Below, in pieces: positions 5,905 through 63,003 of a stretch of 63,380 bases of DNA. The stretch lies in NCBI GenBank assembly GCA_020536535.1, contig JAHLWZ010000358.1, forward strand, positions 1 to 63,380. Reading direction: 5' to 3'. This stretch comes from Pelomyxa schiedti (lineage: Eukaryota > Protista > Evosea). The position numbers and the translations under genes were made by a program. Under the pieces are notes generated by a model. It was not told the DNA's origin. It ran no database searches and saw nothing but the letters and a program-made list of their open reading frames with translations. Position 1 is the first letter of the stretch; each line of letters opens with the position of its first letter.

Positions 5905-8203
5905 ATGAGATCTCTGACAGCACCAACGCCAACGAAACCCACGCTGGACAACGTCGATTACACTCCGACTACGACACCGACCACTTCGACGAGCACTGCT
6001 CCGATTCCCCTCGGCTCGGCAACGAGCCCCTACCACTATCTTACTACGTCGACCTCTGGCTGGACTCCATCGACGCCGCCTTCGCCGCCGACTCCGCTGT
6101 CTTCCCATCATTACGGAGGGGCCATTACTTTTCCGCTGCCGCTCCTCGCGTTTGGCCCAACCTCGACTTTGCCGCTGCCGCCTCACTCGTCTACTCCTCC
6201 CATAAGTGGCACCGCGAGCCCTACGGATTCTACTCCTACGACTGCCAGCTTCTCGCCTTCGCTTATGCCTTTCTGCAACCTTCCTCCTGGTTTCCCAATC
6301 CCTGAGGCCCAGGAGGACCATCTAGAGGCTTTCACGGCAGACAAACGATTGGCTCATGTCTCCTTTGAAGAGCACAGGTGGCAGTACTTATCAGGCTTCA
6401 AGTATCATATCCCTGGACTAGCTTCAACTGCAACTCCTGCTCTTACTCTTACTCCTGGTCCAACTCCAGCACCGACAAGTGCAAACTTGTCTCAAGTCAC
6501 TACTCCAACTGCNNNNNNNNNNNNNNNNNNNNNNNNNNNNNNNNNNNNNNNNNNNNNNNNNNNNNNNNNNNNNNNNNNNNNNNNNNNNNNNNNNNNNNNN
6601 NNNNNNNNNNNNCAGGCTTCAAGTATCATATCCCTGGACTAGCTTCAACTGCAACTCCTGCTCTTACTCTTACTCCTGGTCCAACTCCAGCACCGACAAG
6701 TGCAAACTTGTCTCAAGTCACTACTCCAACTGCGATCCCTGTGTCTCAAACAACCACTCCGACCAGCCTTGCTACTGATGCACTAACCCATAGAATATCT
6801 GCCCTTGGTGCACCAGCTTTTATAACTGCACTACGCCAAGCCACGGGTTTGAGGTATGTATTCTTCACTCATATTTGTTCCTGATCACCCAAGATCGGAT
6901 GTGTCTGTAGAGTGTACAATTGGAGTAGGTTACCGTGGGCAAGTGGTAAAAGTCAAATCAGCGGATAAATTGTTGGCAGTGAAGGTCTTTGGATTTGATC
7001 GACAAGTTCTCAAGACATCATATATCAATGTTCTACAGGTTAACGCCCTCTTATTAGCAAGAGAAAGTAACGAGAATACTCAGAAAATGAGAGCCGACTT
7101 AGCACATGATCCTCATCTTATTGATATCGTCGAAGTTGTTTCAACCGCTCACAATGAGCTAGTCGTTGCTATGGAATTTGCTCCACATGGCAACTTGCTG
7201 CAAAAAATGCTCAAACCTGAATTTCAAGTGTTGGATCGAATAAAAGCTCTTGTAGGCATAGGTACTATGATCAGGATTGTTTCTCTCTCTCACTTGTTTT
7301 AGCGGAGTCTGCCCTTGTGCTACACGGGAGACTTGCTTCCGCACACGGCAACCTCAAGGTTTTTCCCCTGTTTGCACATCATCTCTTAATCTGGAGTAGC
7401 CAACAAATGTACTGTTCTCTGCCAATGACACGGTACAGCTGTCGGACTACTGCCCAGAGAAGTTGGCCTCTTCTTGCTATGATACCTATCAAATGTTTCT
7501 AAGGCCGAAGCACTACACCGACCCGGAGTATTTTACTCCTGTGTTTCTTCTTTACCCTACTAAATCGTACACAGGAGCGTGGTTAAGGGTCCACTAACAC
7601 CCAAAAGTGATGTGTACTCCCTCGGGGTATGGGCTTCCCTTTGTGAAACTTACGGAAGTCTAAAACGAATATCCTCACAGGTTATAGCAACTGAGCTCCT
7701 GACTGGAAAGACTGCACCAGATATCCCTGCTCTTGAGGAACTTAAGAAAGCGATGACGTCGTTCTCGAAAAGTGACATTACTGCTTTACTTGATAGGCGG
7801 TGCACTTGGTCTGATATGGTTGTGAGCACCTTAGTGAAGCTGATTTTGCGGTGCCGTGCCTGGTGTTCCTATAAGCGCCCCGAGATGGCACAAGTGCATT
7901 CAACACTCTTGGAGCTTCAACATGTATACACATCCTTCCGTTTTCCGTGTCCCTCCCAACCTCCCAAAACAGACCCTTGAAGAGGAAGAAAGGGCAAAGA
8001 AAGAAGTGCCCCCAGCCAACCATGCAACGGCTGCAGCTCAGTGCCCCATTTGCCTCCAACACCCGCCAGCAAAGGCAGCCGTACCCTGCGGCCACATGTT
8101 CTGCGCCGCCTGCGTTGCGGAACTCCAAGAAGAACACAGAGACACCACATGTGCACTTTGCCGGCAGGCTGTTACCAACTACTTGAAGGTGTTCCTGTCC
8201 TAG
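5905..8203 (+). CDS. IRAK/RLK-Pelle-like pseudokinase with Pro/Thr/Ser-rich N-terminus and C-terminal C3HC4 RING; spans an assembly gap
   Basis: IGVGYRGQV, LAVKV, MEFAPHGNL, HGNLK, YTDPEYF, LTPKSDVYSLGV, ELLTGK, KRPEM; RING CPIC...PCGHMFCAAC...CALCR. Confidence 0.8.
6392..6733. other. 121-bp exact duplication (6392-6512 = 6613-6733) flanking a 100-N scaffold gap
   Basis: Identical sequence on both sides of the N run; collapsing it restores one reading frame. Confidence 0.9.
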
Positions 8204-19823: not shown

Positions 19824-20625
19824 ATGAAACCGGGAGAGGACACCAGAACCAAGTCAAGGTGTTCAGAGAGTGGCTCATTCAGATGGCCCTCTGTGAGCTG
19901 CTGTAGCTGCACCAGCCCCCCTTCGCCTATTCGCAGTACTCTCCCTGTGTGTATTATGGACGGTGTGTTTCTGAGTGATGCAAGGACTGCTTACCAACAA
20001 CATGTATGCGGTGCTTTTTCGTTGTTTTGGGGCCTCCTTATAAGGAGTAAAAAGGTGCTGTTTACATTGGGGATTAGTGATGTTCTCTCTGTGATGGAAG
20101 TAAGGGATGCTGTTGCTCATAGGTCAAAATTTCCACCTGGAATCAATGTTTCAGTACTTCAGTACGCTCTTGATTTTTCCATGCTTTTCTCACCAAAGTC
20201 ACAGAGTTTCTGACGATCCCCATACACACATTGAGAAGTTCTTTATGGTCGCCATTGACTTCATATCTAAAGCACTGCTATCTCACTCCAGAGGTCAGGT
20301 TCTGGTTCATTGTGAGAGCGGAATCAGCAAGAGTGCAACCATTGTAATTGCCTTCGTAATGTATGCACTTTCCATGGATTCTTTTGCAGCACTGCAAGCC
20401 GTTCAGAAGGAATACCCAGAAGCAAACCCTTCTCCACTATTCCGGGCCCAACTAGCTGAATTCTCCACAGAACTACAGCGAACCAGAGCCTCACAACAAC
20501 AACTAAGGCACTCCCTATGGGGCAGAAAGCGAAGGTCATCAAGCCCAACCACTCTTCGGGCTCTAAGTCAAAACACGCCATCAAGCCCAGAGCAACACCC
20601 TGTATCCATAGTCAACACACCCTGA
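19824..20625 (+). CDS. Atypical dual-specificity phosphatase domain protein with CX5K in place of CX5R
   Basis: IMDGVFLS, LGISDVLSV, VSDDP, VLVHCESGISKSATIVIAFVM, ANPSPLFRAQL. Confidence 0.85.
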
Positions 20626-23629: not shown

Positions 23630-26600
23630 ATGTTGGGACCGAGAAGCACGTCGCCGCCTCCGATTTCCGGCTATGTCGTGTCTTCGACACCAGACCAAAG
23701 GACGAGCCAGTTGTTCATACGACGAGACGCGGCGATAGATCCCATCGATGAAATAGAACTGGTTTGTCACTTGCTGCACCCCCTTGGTTTTCTTTTTTCT
23801 GCTTTTGTTCTTACAAAACACTGTGGACTTAAAGAAATGGGGAGATGCATATGTTTCCATTTTTGATCCCTCAGCTGGTTCGATTCCTAGGACAGGATTG
23901 ATTATTATTCTTGATATTAAAGAGAAGCAGACTGCAGCTGCATTATTCGCCAACAAGGTTCAACTTTACTCCTCTTTTTTTTTTTTTTTGTAACCATCCC
24001 AGGTCAATGAAATGATGATGGTTGGGGGTGGAGGTGAGAAGCAATATGAAACACTAATTATGGCCCTCTTATTTGCAATTCTTTCCAGTCTTTCACTTGC
24101 ACAAGCTACTCCCGTATGTGAAGTTAAATCGGTTGGTTATTTGGTAACCAAGTCCGTAGTATTACCAACAACTTATCAGTGTAATGAGAGACAATCTTCC
24201 CACAACACTTCTCCGGTCGATTTGTGATCGTTACAATAAGTTACTAGACCAACCACGAGCACAGGTATTATCCCACATTTTTTTTCCTTTATTAAGAAAG
24301 AACACAGCTCTTGTGGTTCATAAATGAACTCCTTGTTTACAATGCTTCAGAAGTCGATCTAATTTGCCAGGCACTTCTCCGTCAGATTATTGGTGGAAAC
24401 ATTGACCCAAAAAACCTCTGGTTATGTGATAGGATGTTGCAAATATTTTCCACACACAAGTACCAAAGTCCCTCACAAACAAAGAGATTAAACCGGGCTT
24501 AGGGAATGGTTGTACCGTAATACATCCTTGATTCCATTTGTGTTTTATACATTTACTCGAATGATCATTGACCACTACCAACCAGTAAACATGAGCCTCA
24601 GGCAAGCGGAAATCTCATTGGTGTCCTCTCTAGTCAACGAAAAAGTAGTGCCTTTTTCCATCACCCATTTTCCACTGTAACATTGCTGTGCTCCCATTCA
24701 CTGAATTGGTAGTTCTTAGAGTGCAGTGCAGTGGGAAGAGACGGGCTACGACTACTGCAGGAAGTGTCAAAAATACCAGAATTTGAGGCTATATGGGCGA
24801 AATTACTCACGAGTCCAACTTCTCTTAGGTTTTCTCCACGATTCCTTGATTAAACTTAATTTACTCCTCCAGCCCAACCCTCAGTGATGTATCTCAATTG
24901 TTGCATGTCGAAACACCAAAGCAGTACCTGCAATCAAGGTTAACACCAGAAATGGAGTCACAATTGATTTTTATGATGCAAGACGTATGAAATCGGTGTG
25001 GTAAAAAAAAGTTAACCCTCAAAAAACCCAAAAGGTAAAAATGGGTTGCCAGAGGACATATCAGCATTGGTTCCAGCAACGTTACCTCAATTCAGAATTA
25101 TCAGAGTCTCTTATTGTGGATTTAATACGGTACACATGTTGTGTATGGCACCCCACACATCAGACTTGCTCAAACGTTGTACCAAGGTTAATGCCCTTTC
25201 CCTCAAGAAAAATGTTAACATCGCAATAGATGGGCTATGATTGGTTGGCTCGTCACGTGCATTCAGGCGAGGAACCCTTTTTTTCTTGATCAATTCTAAT
25301 AGACACTTTCTAGAACGATTGGATTGCTGCACAAGCAAAACTGGCTCTGTTTTATGATTGGTTATATTTTGACCCCAAAAAAAATATAATGAACATAGGT
25401 AATTTGTGCCGTAACATTCCAACAAATCTTCTTAATAAGAGGAAGACTGTAATCTTATGCATTAATCAGAACCCGCTATTCTACTAATATACCACTCTAT
25501 TCCAAAATACGCTGGGCTCTCAGCCACTCTACTCGAGTTTCTATTGTTTCTTATAGAGAATTATGATCCTCCCCATCGAGAGAATCTTTTGCACAGTGTT
25601 CAGAGAGCATTAGAAGAAATCCTGAGAAGAAACTTCCTGCAGTAGTGGGCTTTTACTTTTTGTTGTTCCTAACAAGCCCTTTAGAAAGTATGACCCTATC
25701 TTCGCCCATCCCTTTGACTTGGAACTTATGCATAAAATTAAAACTACATTCGCACCATTCTACAAAGCACCTTCACTTCAAACTTCCCAGAAATCTTCGC
25801 AGCAGTTAACATCACAACAACCCCAGCCACTCTTATCGGCACAACCACGTCCATTATCTCCTCCTCAACGCCTGCCACTATCACAGCATATTCTACCATC
25901 ACAGCAATTGCAGGACCAATCACAACCCTCAGAGTACGTTTCCCAGGGCAATCAGCTTGTGGATCACCAAAAAACTGAACCTGCACAAGACAAGAATAGA
26001 GTGGAGCAACCTCTAACTCAAATCTCACAGTCAATTCTATCACTTAAGGGCGTTTTTCTACAAGATCCCACACCCTTCACTCTTTATCAGCTACTAACAG
26101 TCTTTGTGAATGAGGTAGTTCTCTTCTTCATCTACCCCCCTTCAAGCATCACTAGGCAACTAATTTGGATTCCGAACAACGGTATATGAGTATCAAAGAT
26201 GTGGCTAAAACTTTGCTGAGCCGAACTGTATCACTTCCCAAGCTTCCGCTTTCTAGTTCGTTTACTTTGTATTTCTAAAATACAGGAAGCTGAATTCCAA
26301 GATTGCACACCTCAAACTGTTGTTTGTCGTTATGGTCTCTTGCAGACACTGTTCCACATGTGCATTCAGCAAACGCCCAATGGTCCACAGCTTGGATTAT
26401 TGCACAGCATTATCAAAGAATTACGAAATTATAATTCTCTTGCAACACTACGGTATCGTTCCTTGATTTGACACAACTTACAGTATGTAGGTATTTTTGT
26501 TTCCTGATATCAACGATGCCGAATGGAGTTCCTCTTCCACCCACCCCACCACCGCCTGTCCCTCCTATTGTCACTTTATCTCCCGATCAAGTTATGTCTG

Positions 26601-28035
26601 CAGTAGATGGTGATGAAAACGGGGAATCAAAACTCAACAATTTTTATATTCCTGCTCTAGAGATGTGTAAACCTGCGACAACAAATATTTCAGAACTCGT
26701 AGTGTCTGACATATGTGTATGCTTCCAACCTCCTCATCCCAGATTATTGACAATATACTGCTTTATTAGCGCTGTGTTGACTTCAACCGAGTACTCTTTC
26801 TGTCTGTAGTTCCTTTTGCATATTTGTGGTTACCAAGTCACACTGTTGGTAATGCACAATTATTTTATGCTCTATTGTCTGTATTCGACCCATTTCAAGT
26901 ATGAAAGCCCCTTTGGCATTACCCCTTCAACTCAGTTCATAGTAGATGTTCGCTTTCACCAAACGATTACTCACTCGTCAAATACAAATATTTGGTCCTG
27001 ATTTCTTCTCTATTGTTGGTGTGTTTCTGTTGGCTCTTTCATCGCATTCTCCCCCAAATCACACCGCTCACTAAACTCACAGCTATCCCCAGAGGCTTCC
27101 ACTTCATGGGAATCATTTGAACAAAATTGGATGTGGCAGCTACTGGTGGCTGAATACTCACACAACAATCCTCAAAACTTAGAGTCTTTAGTACAGTGGG
27201 CTGTTGGGAAGGCAAACACACACGGTATTACTGGATACTCACCTCAGCGGGCTAATTTCCGTTTAAGGTGCTGGTGACATATGGGTAGGCATTGTTAACC
27301 TGTGCAAAGATGCCACCCCAACCAAAAACCTTGTTCACATACTTCTGACTCAACCTTTTTCAGCACTAACCTCAACAATCTTGTTGCACTGGAGTATCTC
27401 CCCTCATGGGCCTACACTTAGAGTACTCGAGACTATCGCTTTCAGCTTTTCTTACACTCACTTAGGACTGTGTATCCGGACTTGAGGTAGATCAGTCAAT
27501 ACCAGCAGCAGATCAACCCAAAATAAGAGACACATGGTCCAAACTCCAATCCAGCCTCGCATCATCACAAACCTTGTCCAAATTCTCGAGGCTATGTCCT
27601 GAGCCCAAACAGTCTCTGGAAAATACTCGTACACTCTCTAGGAAGCGGAGAAAATTTAAACCGACACCCATCACAAGGGGTTCTGAGCTACCACCATCAA
27701 GCAACACTTCTACACCTGTTAATGACTCTGCGGACTCATACACCCAGAATGAACTTTCTGTTGTTGACACCTCCGAGACAAATGACTTAGCGGAGGGGAT
27801 TGAAACCCCCAACAACAGTGGTGACCAGGCAGACATTTCTAATACCACAAGAAGTGACCATGTGACTGAAATGGAGCCAGAAAGTGAAGGCAGAAAATCC
27901 AATGTGAGTGAGAGTGGGGGTAACAGCGGCAGTGACAGTGGAAGTGACAGTGAAAATGAAGACCAGCTGGAATCCAGTGGAATGCAGACAGAAAAGCCCA
28001 ACAAAGCCAAAAAAGTCAAAAGAAGAAAGTCGTAG
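23630..28035 (+). CDS. INTS3: Integrator complex subunit 3 / SOSS-A; many exons
   Basis: LLRQIIGGNIDPKNLWLC, GRDGLRLLQEVSKIPEF, LQSRLTPEMESQL, YQHWFQQRYL, LIVDLIRYTCCVWHP, VPRWAMIGWL, LALFYDWL. Confidence 0.9.
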
Positions 28036-28151: not shown

Positions 28152-30745
28152 CTAGGTTGTTTTGTTCCGGAACATTGAAAAGTTGCCAGAGTGTTTTGCC
28201 TTTTGTTGCTTCTTCCTTGCCCTTCTTGATTTCGGCTTCCCGGTCTCTTCTTCCTCTGCCTCATTTAGGATTCCTTCCCGCTCAATCGCGGCCAGTGCTT
28301 GTTCTTGCGAACCAAGTAAGAGGTCCACCCTCGCCCTTCCAATTCTGAACACAGGGACTGATGGTGCAACCTTCCGGCAGCTGCACGGCAGGCTCGAAGT
28401 GTTGAGGTGTGAGTAGCGGCCAATCTTGGCACCGCACTCTGGGCATGACACTTTGCCTTCCGGCGGAACTCCGGTGAGTAGGTCTGCAGACATCCACTCT
28501 ACTTTGTTGATGAACAGCATCTTGCACGCGTCCGAGGCGATGGCTGTGGTCCGCGGGCCTTGTTCCTCTGAGGAAGCTGTGTGCGGAAGAATGTCAGAGG
28601 GCAAGAACAGGGTCTTGTGGCACATTTTGCATGTGTAGACCTCCTCTCTCTCGGTAGCTGGGCTCACCTCTGGTTTTGGTTTTGCAATTGCTTTTGGCGT
28701 TGGCTTTGGCTTGGTTGAAGTTGCCGGTGGTGGTGTGTTATCATCATCATCATCGTTGTCATTATTGTCATCACTGTTAGATTCTGAAGGTGATTCTGAA
28801 TCTTCGGTTGGTGTTGGGGCTGGTGCCTTGGTGGGAGGTACTTTTGCTTTTCTGCTTGTATTGGTGGTACTTGTCTGTTTTCTTGGTGGTGTGTCCGCAG
28901 GTGGCGTTGCTCCTTTAGGCACTTTTCCAGAAGGTGTAGTTTTCGGTGGTAAAGGCTTGGGGTCTGGAACTGTGTCTTTCACATGCGGTGTTTCTTCTTC
29001 TTGGCGTTCTTGTCTTCTCTTGCCCTTTTTGCCTTTGGCTGCTTTTGATGTTGGTGGTATGTTCTTTTCACTGGTTACATCTGGATTTTCTTGCGTCACA
29101 GATACTCTGGAAGAATTTTTCTTTGAGACTGGCTTGGATGGTACCGGTTCAACCTCGGGAACTTCTTCCTCTTCTTCAACATTTTCAGGTTCAGTGGCTG
29201 TTGGGGTTGATGTTGCCGCTGAGGCTGTAGTAAGCGGTATTGCCGTTGAGGCTGTTGTACTTTCTGTTGTGGTTTCTTGTGCAAGTGTGGGGTCTGGAGT
29301 ATCACCCAAATGGTAAAACTTGAGGGCGTTGTCATATAAAGTCTGGTACACAGTTGGCTCTGGGAGATTCAGTGCTGCAGCCATTGCCTTGACAATGTAA
29401 GGTGCGTTACTCGGTTCATTTGCGGCATCCCTTATAAAGGTATCTGGAATTGTCTTGGGGGGGTTAAGGTTTTTGCTGTTTAATATTTGGTTTTTTTAAA
29501 AAAGAAAAACTAATGCTCACTTGGGGTGTACCAAATGGTGCATCTGACGCCAGTAAAAGGTGATCAAGGGGAATTTTGGGTAGCTGTGAGGTTGCGAGTG
29601 TTAAATCTTCAGAAACTACTCCTGGAGGTGCAGCACACAGTTGGGCTCCAGAAATACTACAGATGACTGTTACAGGGGTTGATAATCAATTTAGAAGGTA
29701 CCTTATATAAACCCCTTTCGCAAGGAGCATTTCAAGTTCCTGAGTTGTGCCAGCAAATGCATGAACAGCAATTCTTCCTTGGCTTAATAACTCTTCTTGT
29801 TCAGAAAGAAGTTCGCATAATCGCTCCACAGCACCAAATCCAGCTATATTTATCAAAACTGGGAGATTAATCTAAACTAAAATGAGCGTTCAAAAAAGAA
29901 AGTTAGAAAGAAATTACATCTTTGGCCAGTGCAAAGTGGTCTTCTAGAAGTTTCTCTTGTCCAAAGCGTGTGGCAAATTCTGTTCATTAGTTAGTTGTTA
30001 CATAGAAGTTCCCACAGCGCAAAAACCTCGCGTCCAATCCAATCCACAAAACAGTGCCACAACATGACTTGTGAGAGCAGAGTCACGCAGCTGCTCAAGT
30101 TGCTGTTGTGCTAAACGTTCATTGGTTCTTTTCACATTGTCTGAGTGAACACCTAAAATCCCACTCCATAAGAAAATATGATAAAAATCACAACAAAAGA
30201 AATCCGTAGCGACCAAATAATTGTGAAAAATTTTACTTAAAAACCCAGGATATATCCCATAATATAAATGAACAAAAAGCACACCGACAGCAGCGTATAT
30301 TACGCCCTCGTATTGTTTGCACAATTCAATGACACTCTCTTGCTTGTCAAAGTCAGTGTTCATCACAACCATGGCCTGAACCCTGGAAGCCAAACCCCGG
30401 CTCACGAACTTCTGGAAATCCACGGCGAACTGCCGGTTGGCCATCCTGGCGCCACAGTCTATTATGGGAGCAACCTGGGACGCAGACGACGACGAGGACG
30501 AGGACGAGGACGAGAGAGGAGCCAAGGGAGGGGGAGGCAAGCTCACGAGGGGACGCGACGAGGGATCGTGCTTGGGCTTGCTGGCTGTGTCATGCACTTG
30601 TTGCTTGTTCTTTCGAAGGCTCTTTTTACCTTTTGTGGTTTCCCGGCGTTAATTATCTACTACATCGCGACGATGGGATGGCGTTTGTTCTGCTTTTTTG
30701 CCGAGGGCGAAACCTTCTCGTGCGCCGGAACGATCGACCCGGCAT
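28152..30745 (-). CDS. Degenerate TatD (TIM-barrel nuclease) fused through a P/T/K-rich linker to a Yvh1/DUSP12-type zinc-binding domain; start uncertain
   Basis: TatD: IIDCGA, YAAVGVHSD, ALFCGLD, VHAFAG, IPLDHLLLASDAPF, NEPSN. Zinc domain: YTCKMCHKTLF...H...C...KVEWM...EGKVSCPECGAKIGRYS...CSC. Confidence 0.82.
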
Positions 30746-30980
30746 ATCCTCATGAGATCAAAGAGCGAGGGCGATAGGATAGGGTTCAGAGAAAGTGATT
30801 CAGTAAGAACCTCATTGTTCTGATAATGTGCTGAGTAGAGCCTCAAGCTAACCTTGGACTTCTCGCCCAAACACTGCATTACAAGTTGCACTCGCCAGAT
30901 CAAACCCTTTCGCTCCTTCATTTTGTTTCGGCTCCTGTACCAGGTGCAGTTGCCATTCGTTTATTGGTAACGCGATTTCG

Positions 30981-32627
30981 ATGTCGGGCAGGGCGAAAGC
31001 AACGGCTGGTAGGAAAGTGGTGAAAGTAGCAGAGAAGAAGACCCCAAAGAGCGGCGGTGGGGAGGAGGGCCCACTGCGCAAGAAACAAATTGTGGGAAAG
31101 ATAGGGACAGATGAGCTGAAGCAGTGTTGTGTGGCTCTGGCCCACTCCACAAGTGAGTGCTCTCCATGGCCCCTTTTTTTTTTTTTTTTTTTCCCCTCTC
31201 ACTCCTAACATTGGGTGTTTTGGTGATTATTATTAGGTCAGTCTGAAAGGGATAGAGCTGTTGGTGCTGTACGGAAACTTATACGTTCCAATGTGGCTTC
31301 TTTCACGGATATCCAGTTTGGGATATTGTGGCGTGGCTTTTATTTTTGTAAGGCTTCACTCCTATCCCACAGTTATGTGTGCGCTAACAAACCAAGGCAT
31401 TTGGCACGCTGACAAGGTCCCTTATCAACAAAAACTGATGCGTCTTTTGGCACAAATGACCTCTCTTTTTAATACTACCGAGCAATCTATGAAATTTACT
31501 TTGTGGTTTTTCCGAACCATTCAAACAGAGTGGAAGGGAATTGACAAGTGGAGGTTTGTATGGCCAGACACAAAGGATATACAATAACAAACCCTTAGAA
31601 TTGATAAATACATGAGCATTGTGAGGTTCATGATGGAGGAATCCCTCCAGGTTATTGGTAACCATCAATGGGATATTCAATTGGCGGAGTTATGGGTCAG
31701 CACCCTTATCCAAGGGCTTACAACAACGGGACTTGAAATTCAAACAAAGCCGAAGGGGGGTGCCAAAGCACCCCAAGATGATGGCGGCTGGGAAGCTGAA
31801 ATTCGAGGAGCAACTGAAGGATCACTGGTGCATCACATTGCCGATATTTTCTGGGAGACTCTAACAACAAGTGCTAGAAGAGTGGTTTGCACTTTACAGC
31901 TTAATCCTCATAATTGACCCTTGCGTAAGGGTTCTAAGCCACCGATTGCAGTGGTGGTTGAGTTATTCTCGGCCATGGTGAAGCTATCTCTTACGAGCGT
32001 TAATGGTGATACCATGGTGTATATAGGATCAACCTGTTTCATTGCGCCTTTCACTGCTAACCCCCCTGGTGTCATTGCCAAGCGGCAGGCCAAAGTTGTG
32101 CCGGAGTTACGTTCTTTACTTAAGAGGTTCTCCAGATCTAAGGAGTACTCAAGGTAAAACAGTTTGTGGTTATTATGTCATTTTCACTCATCACTTCTAA
32201 CAGGTCCAGAAGAGAATGGCTCACGGGTTTCATTTCCGAACTAATGGCATCCTACACACCAGAACCAGAACCAGAAAGTGAAGAGGAACCAACAAGAACT
32301 ACCGGAAAACGCAGGAAACTTATAATGGAAGAGAGGCCCATATCCACAGCCGAACCAACACCAAAGAAACCCAGGACAGCATCAACCACCACCACCTCAA
32401 CAACCACAACTAGCACCACCCAATCACCGGCACCAACAACACCAGAGGACACTCCAGCTAGTACCGGCCGGAAAGGCAAATACAAGGGCAAGGCACTCAG
32501 TGAGGAAGAGCGAAAGAAGAAGCTGGAAAAGCTGGAGAAAAACAAAAAGAGAAAGGCAATCCTGGCAGCCAAGAAAAAGAAAAGGATGGCCAAGTCCCGT
32601 CCCAGGTATCCCGCTCCTCTCGTCTAA
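30981..32627 (+). CDS. RRP1: Ribosomal RNA processing protein 1 (Nop52/RRP1 family)
   Basis: LWRGFYFC-IWHADKVPYQQ and FFRTIQTEWKGIDKWR-IDKYMSIVR; Lys-rich tail. Confidence 0.9.
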
Positions 32628-61700: not shown

Positions 61701-62646
61701 CAGAACCACTCGAAGTCCATTCCAACACCACGAAACAGCAGTGAGGCAAGGGGGTGTGAGCCATCTGAGCACGGGATGAATACTAGCAATACCCCCTTAG
61801 CTCCACAGAAGCTGTGGTGTGCATTAAAAACAAAGAAGGGTGCAACATTGCCATACTATGCTGTTGTAATGTTTCTGTATCTATATTCAAGAGGGTTATT
61901 ACAAGTTAGAAGTATTATCAACATACCTTTCTTGTCCTGCAGTATCCTTGTACAAGGTTAAAATATGAAGAATGAACTGTCTTTGTACCCAAATTTGAAG
62001 CTTCACTTTTCTTCCTTCAAGCACAACCCTTTTTATCTTGAAGTCAATTCTGGTTTGTCTTCAAAAAATAAGAATCCACCATAAAAAGGTCATGGACCTT
62101 GGGGACTGTGGTTTCTTTGCAGAAGAAACTCACCCCCCTCGACTCCCAGGTCTCGCTCTGGCCAGTCTTTTCCAAGTTCCTTTGTACAGCTGTTTTTTTG
62201 GGGTTTCTTCTTATCCTGAGCTATCAACATTCCGTGCACCTGCTGTTTCGAAAACGGCCGTAATTATTTATCTGAATGGCATCGACGGGGGGTGCCGCGA
62301 CGCCGATGGAGACTATCAATATGCTAATAATTAGAAGACGGGTGTGGATCTATGGGACCAAAGGCCATTTCGCAGCATCGTTTTCATTTCAGTGTGAGAA
62401 GTGGCAAGGTGACAAGAAAAGAAGGGCACCTTGTGCTTCTTCTCATTGTTGATCCTGCTGTTGTGAAGCTGTCACTTTGGCTGGATTAACCTGCTAAAAT
62501 GATAATGCGTAACGGTACCAGCACAGCAACACCGTTTGGAGGATGTNNNNNNNNNNNNNNNNNNNNNNNNNNNNNNNNNNNNNNNNNNNNNNNNNNNNNN
62601 NNNNNNNNNNNNNNNNNNNNNNNNNNNNNNNNNNNNNNNNNNNNNN

Positions 62647-63003
62647 TCCTCGTCGTCGTCAGCATTGGCGTCTTCGTCTTCGTCGTCGTCTGCTCGAACT
62701 TCTCAGGAGCAGCAGAGGGCACCTCCGTCGTTGATCAAACTTCCTCCTCCACCTATTCCTCTGCAGATTGTGGAACTGGACGCTGCAAGTTTGCAGTCGT
62801 CGCTGATGCAACTCCCACAGCAACAGCAGCAACAACAACAACAACAACACCAACAGCAGGTGCAGCCGCCACCGCGGGGTTATGGGTCGCCGTCGTCGTC
62901 GTCGTCGTCTTCGTCGCCCTACGACTCGGACGATACCCCTCCAATGACGCCACCGCCTCACGATCTCAACAGTGTTGTTGTACTATCGGAAAAACAAGAA
63001 TAA
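62647..63003 (+). CDS. 3' fragment of a second copy or allele of the ACL-A gene
   Basis: Encodes the same tail ending ...VLSEKQE*; the 5' part is lost in the gap. Confidence 0.7.
   Translation, partial: SSSSSALASSSSSSSARTSQEQQRAPPSLIKLPPPPIPLQIVELDAASLQSSLMQLPQQQQQQQQQQHQQQVQPPPRGYGSPSSSSSSSSPYDSDDTPPMTPPPHDLNSVVVLSEKQE

Follow-up and report, generated by a model that had tools for sequence, protein, structure and literature searches.

The window, i.e. the whole 63,380-nt stretch of DNA analysed here, comes from contig JAHLWZ010000358.1 of Pelomyxa schiedti and is eukaryotic DNA with short introns. Its minus strand carries a gene that joins a TatD-fold barrel to a Yvh1/DUSP12-type zinc domain (referred to below as the fusion gene). 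The protein was deposited as KAH3763698.1 (782 aa; "hydrolase TatD [Pelomyxa schiedti]"), here P0001. The features of the gene are as follows:

30714..30753, minus strand: exon 1, predicted from the deposited model and the motif position; start ATG at 30753 and first half of a DRxGxREGKKSLR-type motif
30630..30713, minus strand: intron 1, predicted, 84 nt, GT-AG; from the deposited model, absent from the RNA cover
30285..30629, minus strand: exon 2; basic helix, Ser run and TatD barrel strands 1-3; RNA cover 30281-30481
30027..30152, minus strand: exon 3; H187 (His62 equivalent), K192, F219 (lost Glu91 site) and R226 (Arg98 equivalent)
29918..29979, minus strand: exon 4; RNA
29702..29871, minus strand: exon 5; Asn in place of His127, His152 retained; RNA
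29521..29656, minus strand: exon 6; Ala in place of Glu201, Asp203 retained; RNA
28152..29453, minus strand: exon 7; barrel end, linker, zinc domain, tail and stop; RNA
29310..30462, minus strand: class I TatD-fold barrel, P0001 residues 126-397, spread over six exons; Pfam, Foldseek
28650..29258, minus strand: Pro/Thr/Lys/Glu-rich linker, residues 415-617, predicted to be disordered; pLDDT < 50
28317..28640, minus strand: Yvh1/DUSP12-type zinc domain, residues 621-728; putative ligands C624, C627, H640, C659, C686, C689, C706 and C708
28161..28184, minus strand: NFSxFRNK-type C-terminal motif, behind a basic run; family conservation

Structure of the fusion gene and its neighbourhood

The RNA data comprised three runs, all from one sample of one study; the region is also contained in a further run of unknown kind. 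RNA contig X1 record 2 (1914 nt) runs unbroken from 30467 to 28217, joining the beginning of TatD to the zinc domain. Five GT-AG introns are spliced out of it (30284-30153, 30026-29980, 29917-29872, 29701-29657 and 29520-29454). A second contig, X2 record 5, spans 29656-28149, crosses the last two joints and reaches the stop region. The joined exons form a single open frame ending with the stop at 28152, and this frame is identical to P0001 from residue 57 onward. The first-pass annotation had placed the TatD and zinc domains in one frame, and the single spliced contig bears this out; it also settles the joint at 29400-29520, which had been singled out for RT-PCR. Two adjacent genes, or a mis-joined gene model, were ruled out by the spliced contig and by transcriptome-derived fusions in five other species.

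At the 5' end of the fusion gene, no RNA contig extends above 30514. Based on the deposited model and on the N-terminal motif of the family (of the 16 members with this motif, 14 have its Asp 4-8 residues away from the start), ATG 30753 is the likely start, giving a predicted protein of 726 aa with the motif Asp at position 7. The deposited start of P0001 is probably too far upstream. An extra first intron would lie at 30713-30630 and would remove an in-frame TAA at 30651-30649. Position 30745, previously taken as the gene end, proved to be an ATG in another frame.

A Nop52/RRP1 ribosome-biogenesis gene (30978-32624, plus strand; Pfam PF05997, E 6.6e-13) stands head-to-head with the fusion gene, the putative ATGs being about 225 bp apart, which is a single post-hoc observation. 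The neighbours given for one side of the Chlamydomonas relative of the fusion gene, Cre10.g429601, differ from those found in Pelomyxa. An Integrator subunit 3-like gene (about 24000-28035, plus strand; Ints3_N matches), with two introns visible in RNA, lies tail-to-tail with the fusion gene, and a dual-specificity phosphatase exon was found at 20104-20622 (plus strand; DSPc E 5e-18). Runs of N (assembly gaps) with near-repeated flanks occur at 6513-6617 and about 62545-62650 (coordinates approximate).

A TatD barrel altered at its metal-binding residues

Pfam assigned residues 126-397 of P0001 to TatD_DNase (PF01026) at E 2.4e-37, with 129 bits against a cut-off of 27, and exon 2 alone gave E 1.5e-6. 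This was the only Pfam domain in the window protein at E up to 0.01, and a phosphatase domain was absent. The solved sequences closest to the barrel are those of E. coli TatD (E 4e-21) and P. putida TatD, with human TATDN1 at 8e-7. In the AlphaFold model, built on a 19-sequence alignment (mean pLDDT 65, pTM 0.52), the barrel is confident and the zinc domain moderately so. Its top Foldseek match is E. coli TatD 1xwy (E 5.6e-18, TM 0.90 by target, rmsd 2.5 Å). The disordered linker proposed earlier agrees with the predicted model, where residues 415-617 have a pLDDT below 50.

The motifs LFCGLD, INIA, VHAF and ASDAP, from which the first-pass annotation had deduced a change of several metal ligands, are present as quoted and align to E91, H127, H152, E201 and D203 of E. 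coli TatD. The window protein has Phe at E91, Ala at E201 and Asn at H127, and keeps H152 and D203. In E. coli TatD, each of the changes E91A, E201A and D203A abolishes activity, and H62A lowers it strongly (PMC4176340, in part); in TATDN1, where E112 takes the place of the bridging metal ligand E91, the variant E112A cuts both activities (PMC10085689, in part).

These losses are family-wide. Among the 28 TatD fusions analysed (see below), each column was scored in those members whose residue there is reliable, and the N-terminal stretches of P0002, P0040 and P0047, which are garbled, were left out; since the members are related, the counts do not represent independent events. Glu is absent from the E91 column (0/25, with a one-residue deletion common to 24 of the 25) and from the E201 column (0/28). 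His is found in 5/26 at H127 and in 4/28 at H152, Arg in 1/26 at R129, while the D203 column contains Asp and Asn in 13 of 28 members each. The Asn (N7) of the (G/A)xN motif, defined for TatD in PMC10085689 (in part), occurs in 8/21 members, and the window protein reads G-A-R. The loss of catalytic ligands is thus borne out well beyond the Pelomyxa protein, and a decayed gene restricted to Pelomyxa was ruled out because the whole family has the losses in common. Judged by the defining features E91, E201 and (G/A)xN, the fusion protein would not be an active class I TatD. That it is nevertheless an ordinary, active TatD DNase whose zinc domain is an accessory, as its database names say, is very improbable: the Pfam match far above cut-off and the presence of H62, H152, D203 and R98 in the window protein speak for it, but no member has E91 or E201 and the NCBIfam TatD models score far below their cut-offs (107 versus 395 and 105 versus 206).

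Other positions of the barrel are strongly conserved, i.e. H62 (24/25, the window protein included), R98 (25/25), D95 (23/25) and N221 (28/28). In the numbering of the window protein, the conserved family residues are H187 (24/25), D189 (23/25), N190 (23/25), K192 (25/25), D127 (21/21), D353 (25/25) and R226 (25/25). The basic or polar residues R135, K192, T347 and D353 are newly invariant, and R357 is present in 23/25; D189, N190, K192 and D353, fixed in the family, are absent from the standalone TatD reference (P0166). E. coli TatD digests both ssDNA and ssRNA, and in its complex R98 shifts toward, and then contacts, the DNA backbone. For TATDN1, H77 is described as binding phosphate and R119 as required for DNA engagement (PMC10085689, in part); we infer that these two correspond to H62 and R98 of E. 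coli TatD.

The metal ligands are gone, the substrate contacts are kept and a new invariant loop has appeared, which is the pattern expected of a nucleic-acid-binding pseudoenzyme. Nucleic-acid binding by the fusion protein is likely, and a non-cutting nucleic-acid-binding factor is the most likely reading, to which we give slightly better than even chances. The intact fold and the recurrence of the architecture in 28 proteins argue for it. Against it stand the D203 column, which is Asp or Asn in 26/28, the H152 that the window protein retains, and the loss of E. coli R129; moreover, the conserved residues may be structural or part of a new catalytic site.

Indeed, the same residue pattern would leave room for new metal-free chemistry. 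We consider it unlikely that the barrel was repurposed as a metal-independent enzyme (e.g. an AP lyase or a phosphoesterase) acting through the His-x-Asp-Asn-x-Lys loop and the arginines. The conservation of H187, D189, N190, K192, D127, D353 and R226 across distant protists would fit such an enzyme, and so would the Asp-Asn and Lys by which the loop differs from P0166. However, the same residues suit plain phosphate binding, and no precedent was found for a TatD without the bridging Glu.

The zinc domain and the family of TatD fusions

Searched in full with HMMER, the 118-aa zinc domain had 274 matches at E up to 0.001. Pfam was applied to the best 150 of these 274: 19 carry TatD, counting the window protein, 48 carry DSPc and 2 carry HAD_SAK_2. 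Nine TatD fusions were added by two more searches, giving the 28 analysed; longer cluster members replaced three fragments, and P0005 and P0022 were removed from the match list as repeat and C2H2 artefacts. A word-index homolog search with the zinc domain of the window gave no match. No relative of P0151 turned up when prokaryote genome contigs were scanned by pattern, nor any of P0169 in metagenome contigs; this is weak evidence, as such scans find close relatives only. Atlas searches returned only generic TatD clusters (0.78-0.79) and zinc-domain leads below 0.9.

The zinc domain matches yeast Yvh1 (6n8m_Y) at E 1.2e-6, residues 623-726 of P0001 align with Yvh1, and all eight putative zinc ligands are present in the window protein, so that the homology to Yvh1/DUSP12 suggested at first pass stands. 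The model of a relative, P0004, matches Yvh1 in the pre-60S structure 6n8m (Foldseek E 7e-6).

In the yeast pre-60S particle, Yvh1 stacks on H43, H89 and the SRL through W329, R269 and F260, W329 being the residue that meets rRNA helix 43 (bioRxiv 10.1101/444414, in part). Trp occupies the W329 column in none of 22 TatD-fused copies (of 28, four lack the segment and two were not parsed) versus 42 of 47 phosphatase-fused copies (one of 48 was not parsed), and the window protein has Val. The W319 column is similar, with Trp in 0/26 versus 44/47. This contrast was not favoured by the selection of hits, as the search query itself lacks these Trp residues. A F260-like Phe was scored in 6/20 TatD-fused versus 33/45 phosphatase-fused copies by a crude window count in a loop that aligns poorly; the loop of the window protein contains no Phe. 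At the F283 column the window protein has Leu, and F283L of yeast Yvh1 is a loss-of-function, dominant-negative allele (PMC9404827, in part); human DUSP12 has Tyr there, hence the column is not invariant. A further column is Lys/Arg in 16/21 TatD-fused copies and mostly Gln (27/47) in phosphatase-fused ones. In a zinc-domain tree calculated by a quick method from 25 TatD-fused and 43 phosphatase-fused sequences (117 columns, long branches), the TatD-fused copies form one side of a branch with an SH-aLRT of 94, and 0/500 shuffles were as low; they may have a single origin.

These alignments mark the zinc domain as homologous to that of Yvh1, with an altered binding face, and the whole protein would not count as Yvh1/DUSP12 by the defining features tested. 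As the rRNA-stacking W329 is missing in the TatD-fused copies, Mrt4 release in the manner of Yvh1 is doubtful. The proposal of a nucleic-acid-binding pseudonuclease recruited to ribosomes was thus supported in its first half, by the retained nucleic-acid-contacting residues (H62 and R98), and weakened in its second, since W329 and F283 are replaced in the window protein and an F260-type aromatic appears to be absent from it.

The same observations bear on whether the protein is a Yvh1 stand-in or paralog, which would bind pre-60S at the P-stalk/SRL and release Mrt4, with the dead barrel replacing a dispensable phosphatase. In yeast it is indeed the zinc domain of Yvh1, and not the phosphatase, that does the job (PMC9404827, in part; PMC2753163), and the homology with its eight putative ligands, as well as the head-to-head Nop52/RRP1 gene, would agree with such a role. 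It is nonetheless improbable, given the absent W329 and W319, the Leu at F283 and the scarcity of F260-like Phe. In addition, supplement 5 of PMC3919561 gives a YVH1 candidate for Chlamydomonas under the old id 195801, although this may be the same gene as Cre10.g429601.

The named bearers of the fusion, besides Pelomyxa, are Mastigella eilhardi, Gefionella okellyi, Soliformovum irregulare, Andalucia godoyi, Clastostelium recurvatum, Cavostelium apophysatum, Cyanophora paradoxa, Volvox africanus, Chlamydomonas reinhardtii (CHLRE_10g429601, i.e. Cre10.g429601) and Sanguina aurantia, which we take to represent Amoebozoa, Discoba, Archaeplastida and, nominally, malawimonads. The named members so far include nothing from animals, fungi or land plants. 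The remaining members are environmental records, and several members come from transcriptome assemblies. A barrel tree (26 rows, two outgroups) united the green algae (99/94) and Soliformovum with Cavostelium (98/95), without firm order at the deep nodes. The sequence labelled Gefionella okellyi in EukProt (P0151 / P0007) is sister to the Pelomyxa protein (99/97); it may be a contaminant of that transcriptome, or a transfer, and the record was not relied on for the former reason.

Both ends of the protein carry short motifs. The N-terminal DRxGxRE(G)KKSLR-type motif was found in 16/28 members, most others beginning downstream of it, and the C-terminal NFSxFRNK-type motif, behind a basic run, in 22/28 TatD fusions versus 0/48 phosphatase fusions. 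The linker between the domains varies from about 65 to 329 aa in the relatives, one probably mis-modelled protein apart. The maintenance of short motifs at both ends of an otherwise variable protein suggests that they may serve a fixed partner.

Several relatives have additional peculiarities. In P0111, a family member, the linker is interrupted by a WWE domain and the second zinc site is degenerate. In an environmental clade (P0009, P0010, P0015, P0026, P0040, P0047, P0068, P0172 and P0180), long insertions interrupt the zinc domain, and a short conserved W-containing motif precedes the third Cys. In P0061 and P0093 a DUSP12-type zinc domain, with both Trp kept, accompanies HAD_SAK_2 (Swiss Army Knife RNA repair), and in P0052 and P0101 it follows a common N-terminal domain without a Pfam match.

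Possible function and comparison with known systems

The sole phenotype found for the family comes from Chlamydomonas. Strain CAL007_03_46, whose one mapped lesion is in Cre10.g429601, requires acetate and has a dark Fv/Fm of 0.127 (PMC8448359, in part). In the same source, the gene is on the higher-confidence candidate list with one allele, an empty genetic-linkage cell and the predicted location "O" (other). The phenotype is a lead only; the supplements of PMC9110296 that were searched gave no match to Cre10.g429601. It would be compatible with a role in organelle gene expression, at least in algae, and so would the barrel, which is nearer to bacterial TatD than to human TATDN1. Such a role appears highly improbable to us, as the single allele, the empty linkage cell and the predicted location weaken the lead, the family is present in plastid-less amoebae, and the id of the Andalucia member was absent, in the form searched, from the Andalucia mitochondrial-proteome supplements covered. 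To our knowledge, the mitochondrion-related organelles of Pelomyxa have no genome, which also counts against this role.

A non-cutting nucleic-acid-binding factor therefore remains our preferred reading, and it might work as follows. Having lost its metal-binding glutamates, the TatD barrel likely cannot cut, but it likely still grips single-stranded RNA or DNA. The mouth of the barrel would bind a nucleic-acid end and shield or position it. The tethered zinc domain, together with the basic terminal motifs, would give a second contact and dock the protein on a larger RNA-protein particle, which could be a ribosome or pre-ribosome, though the contact would then differ from the known Yvh1 site.

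The fusion was presented at first pass as an unfamiliar architecture, and literature searches on TatD together with DUSP12, with Yvh1, with pseudoenzymes or with protist fusions found no description of the pairing (subscription papers and bioRxiv supplements were outside their scope). We suggest that these proteins constitute an undescribed, old protist pseudonuclease family. Their database names ("hydrolase TatD", "3'-5' exonuclease TatD", "cell death-related nuclease 2") are at odds with the essential glutamates missing in every member examined. That amoebae, a jakobid, a glaucophyte and green algae have all retained an apparently dead enzyme, along with its invariant surface residues and two terminal motifs, suggests an old function, one invisible to yeast- and animal-centred work. 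It is conceivable, though we advance this tentatively, that a bacterial-type TatD stripped of catalysis and a duplicated Yvh1 zinc domain gave rise to a protein of nearly LECA age, which in protists acts as a so far overlooked factor associated with RNA or the ribosome. If true, the absence of this factor from yeast and humans would explain why it was missed. The family also offers a natural experiment, i.e. a Yvh1 zinc domain without the rRNA-stacking tryptophan. Chlamydomonas, a model organism, carries the gene, and the existing mutant strain, listed as available, makes the idea testable.

Among known systems, the class I TatD proteins (E. coli TatD, P. putida 3RCM and human TATDN1) share with the fusion family the TIM barrel (TM 0.90 to 1xwy), the lack of an HxH motif, and H62, D95, R98 and the NEP motif. 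Unlike them, the family is devoid of E91 and E201 throughout, drifts at H127 and H152, mostly lacks the Asn of (G/A)xN (8/21), and adds an N-terminal motif, a linker, a zinc domain and a tail. With Yvh1/DUSP12 it has in common the two-zinc Cys/His pattern, the C-terminal position behind an enzyme-like domain, and the match in sequence and fold. It differs in the absence of a phosphatase domain, in never having Trp at W329 or W319, in its separate tree branch and in the extra tail motif. The zinc module may also be used without a phosphatase as the N-terminal zinc domain of RNF180 (an Atlas "putative RNF180" at 0.86, a lead only), and the HAD_SAK_2 fusions P0061 and P0093 have the same module, likewise without a phosphatase; in both cases, however, the partner domains are different and TatD is not among them.
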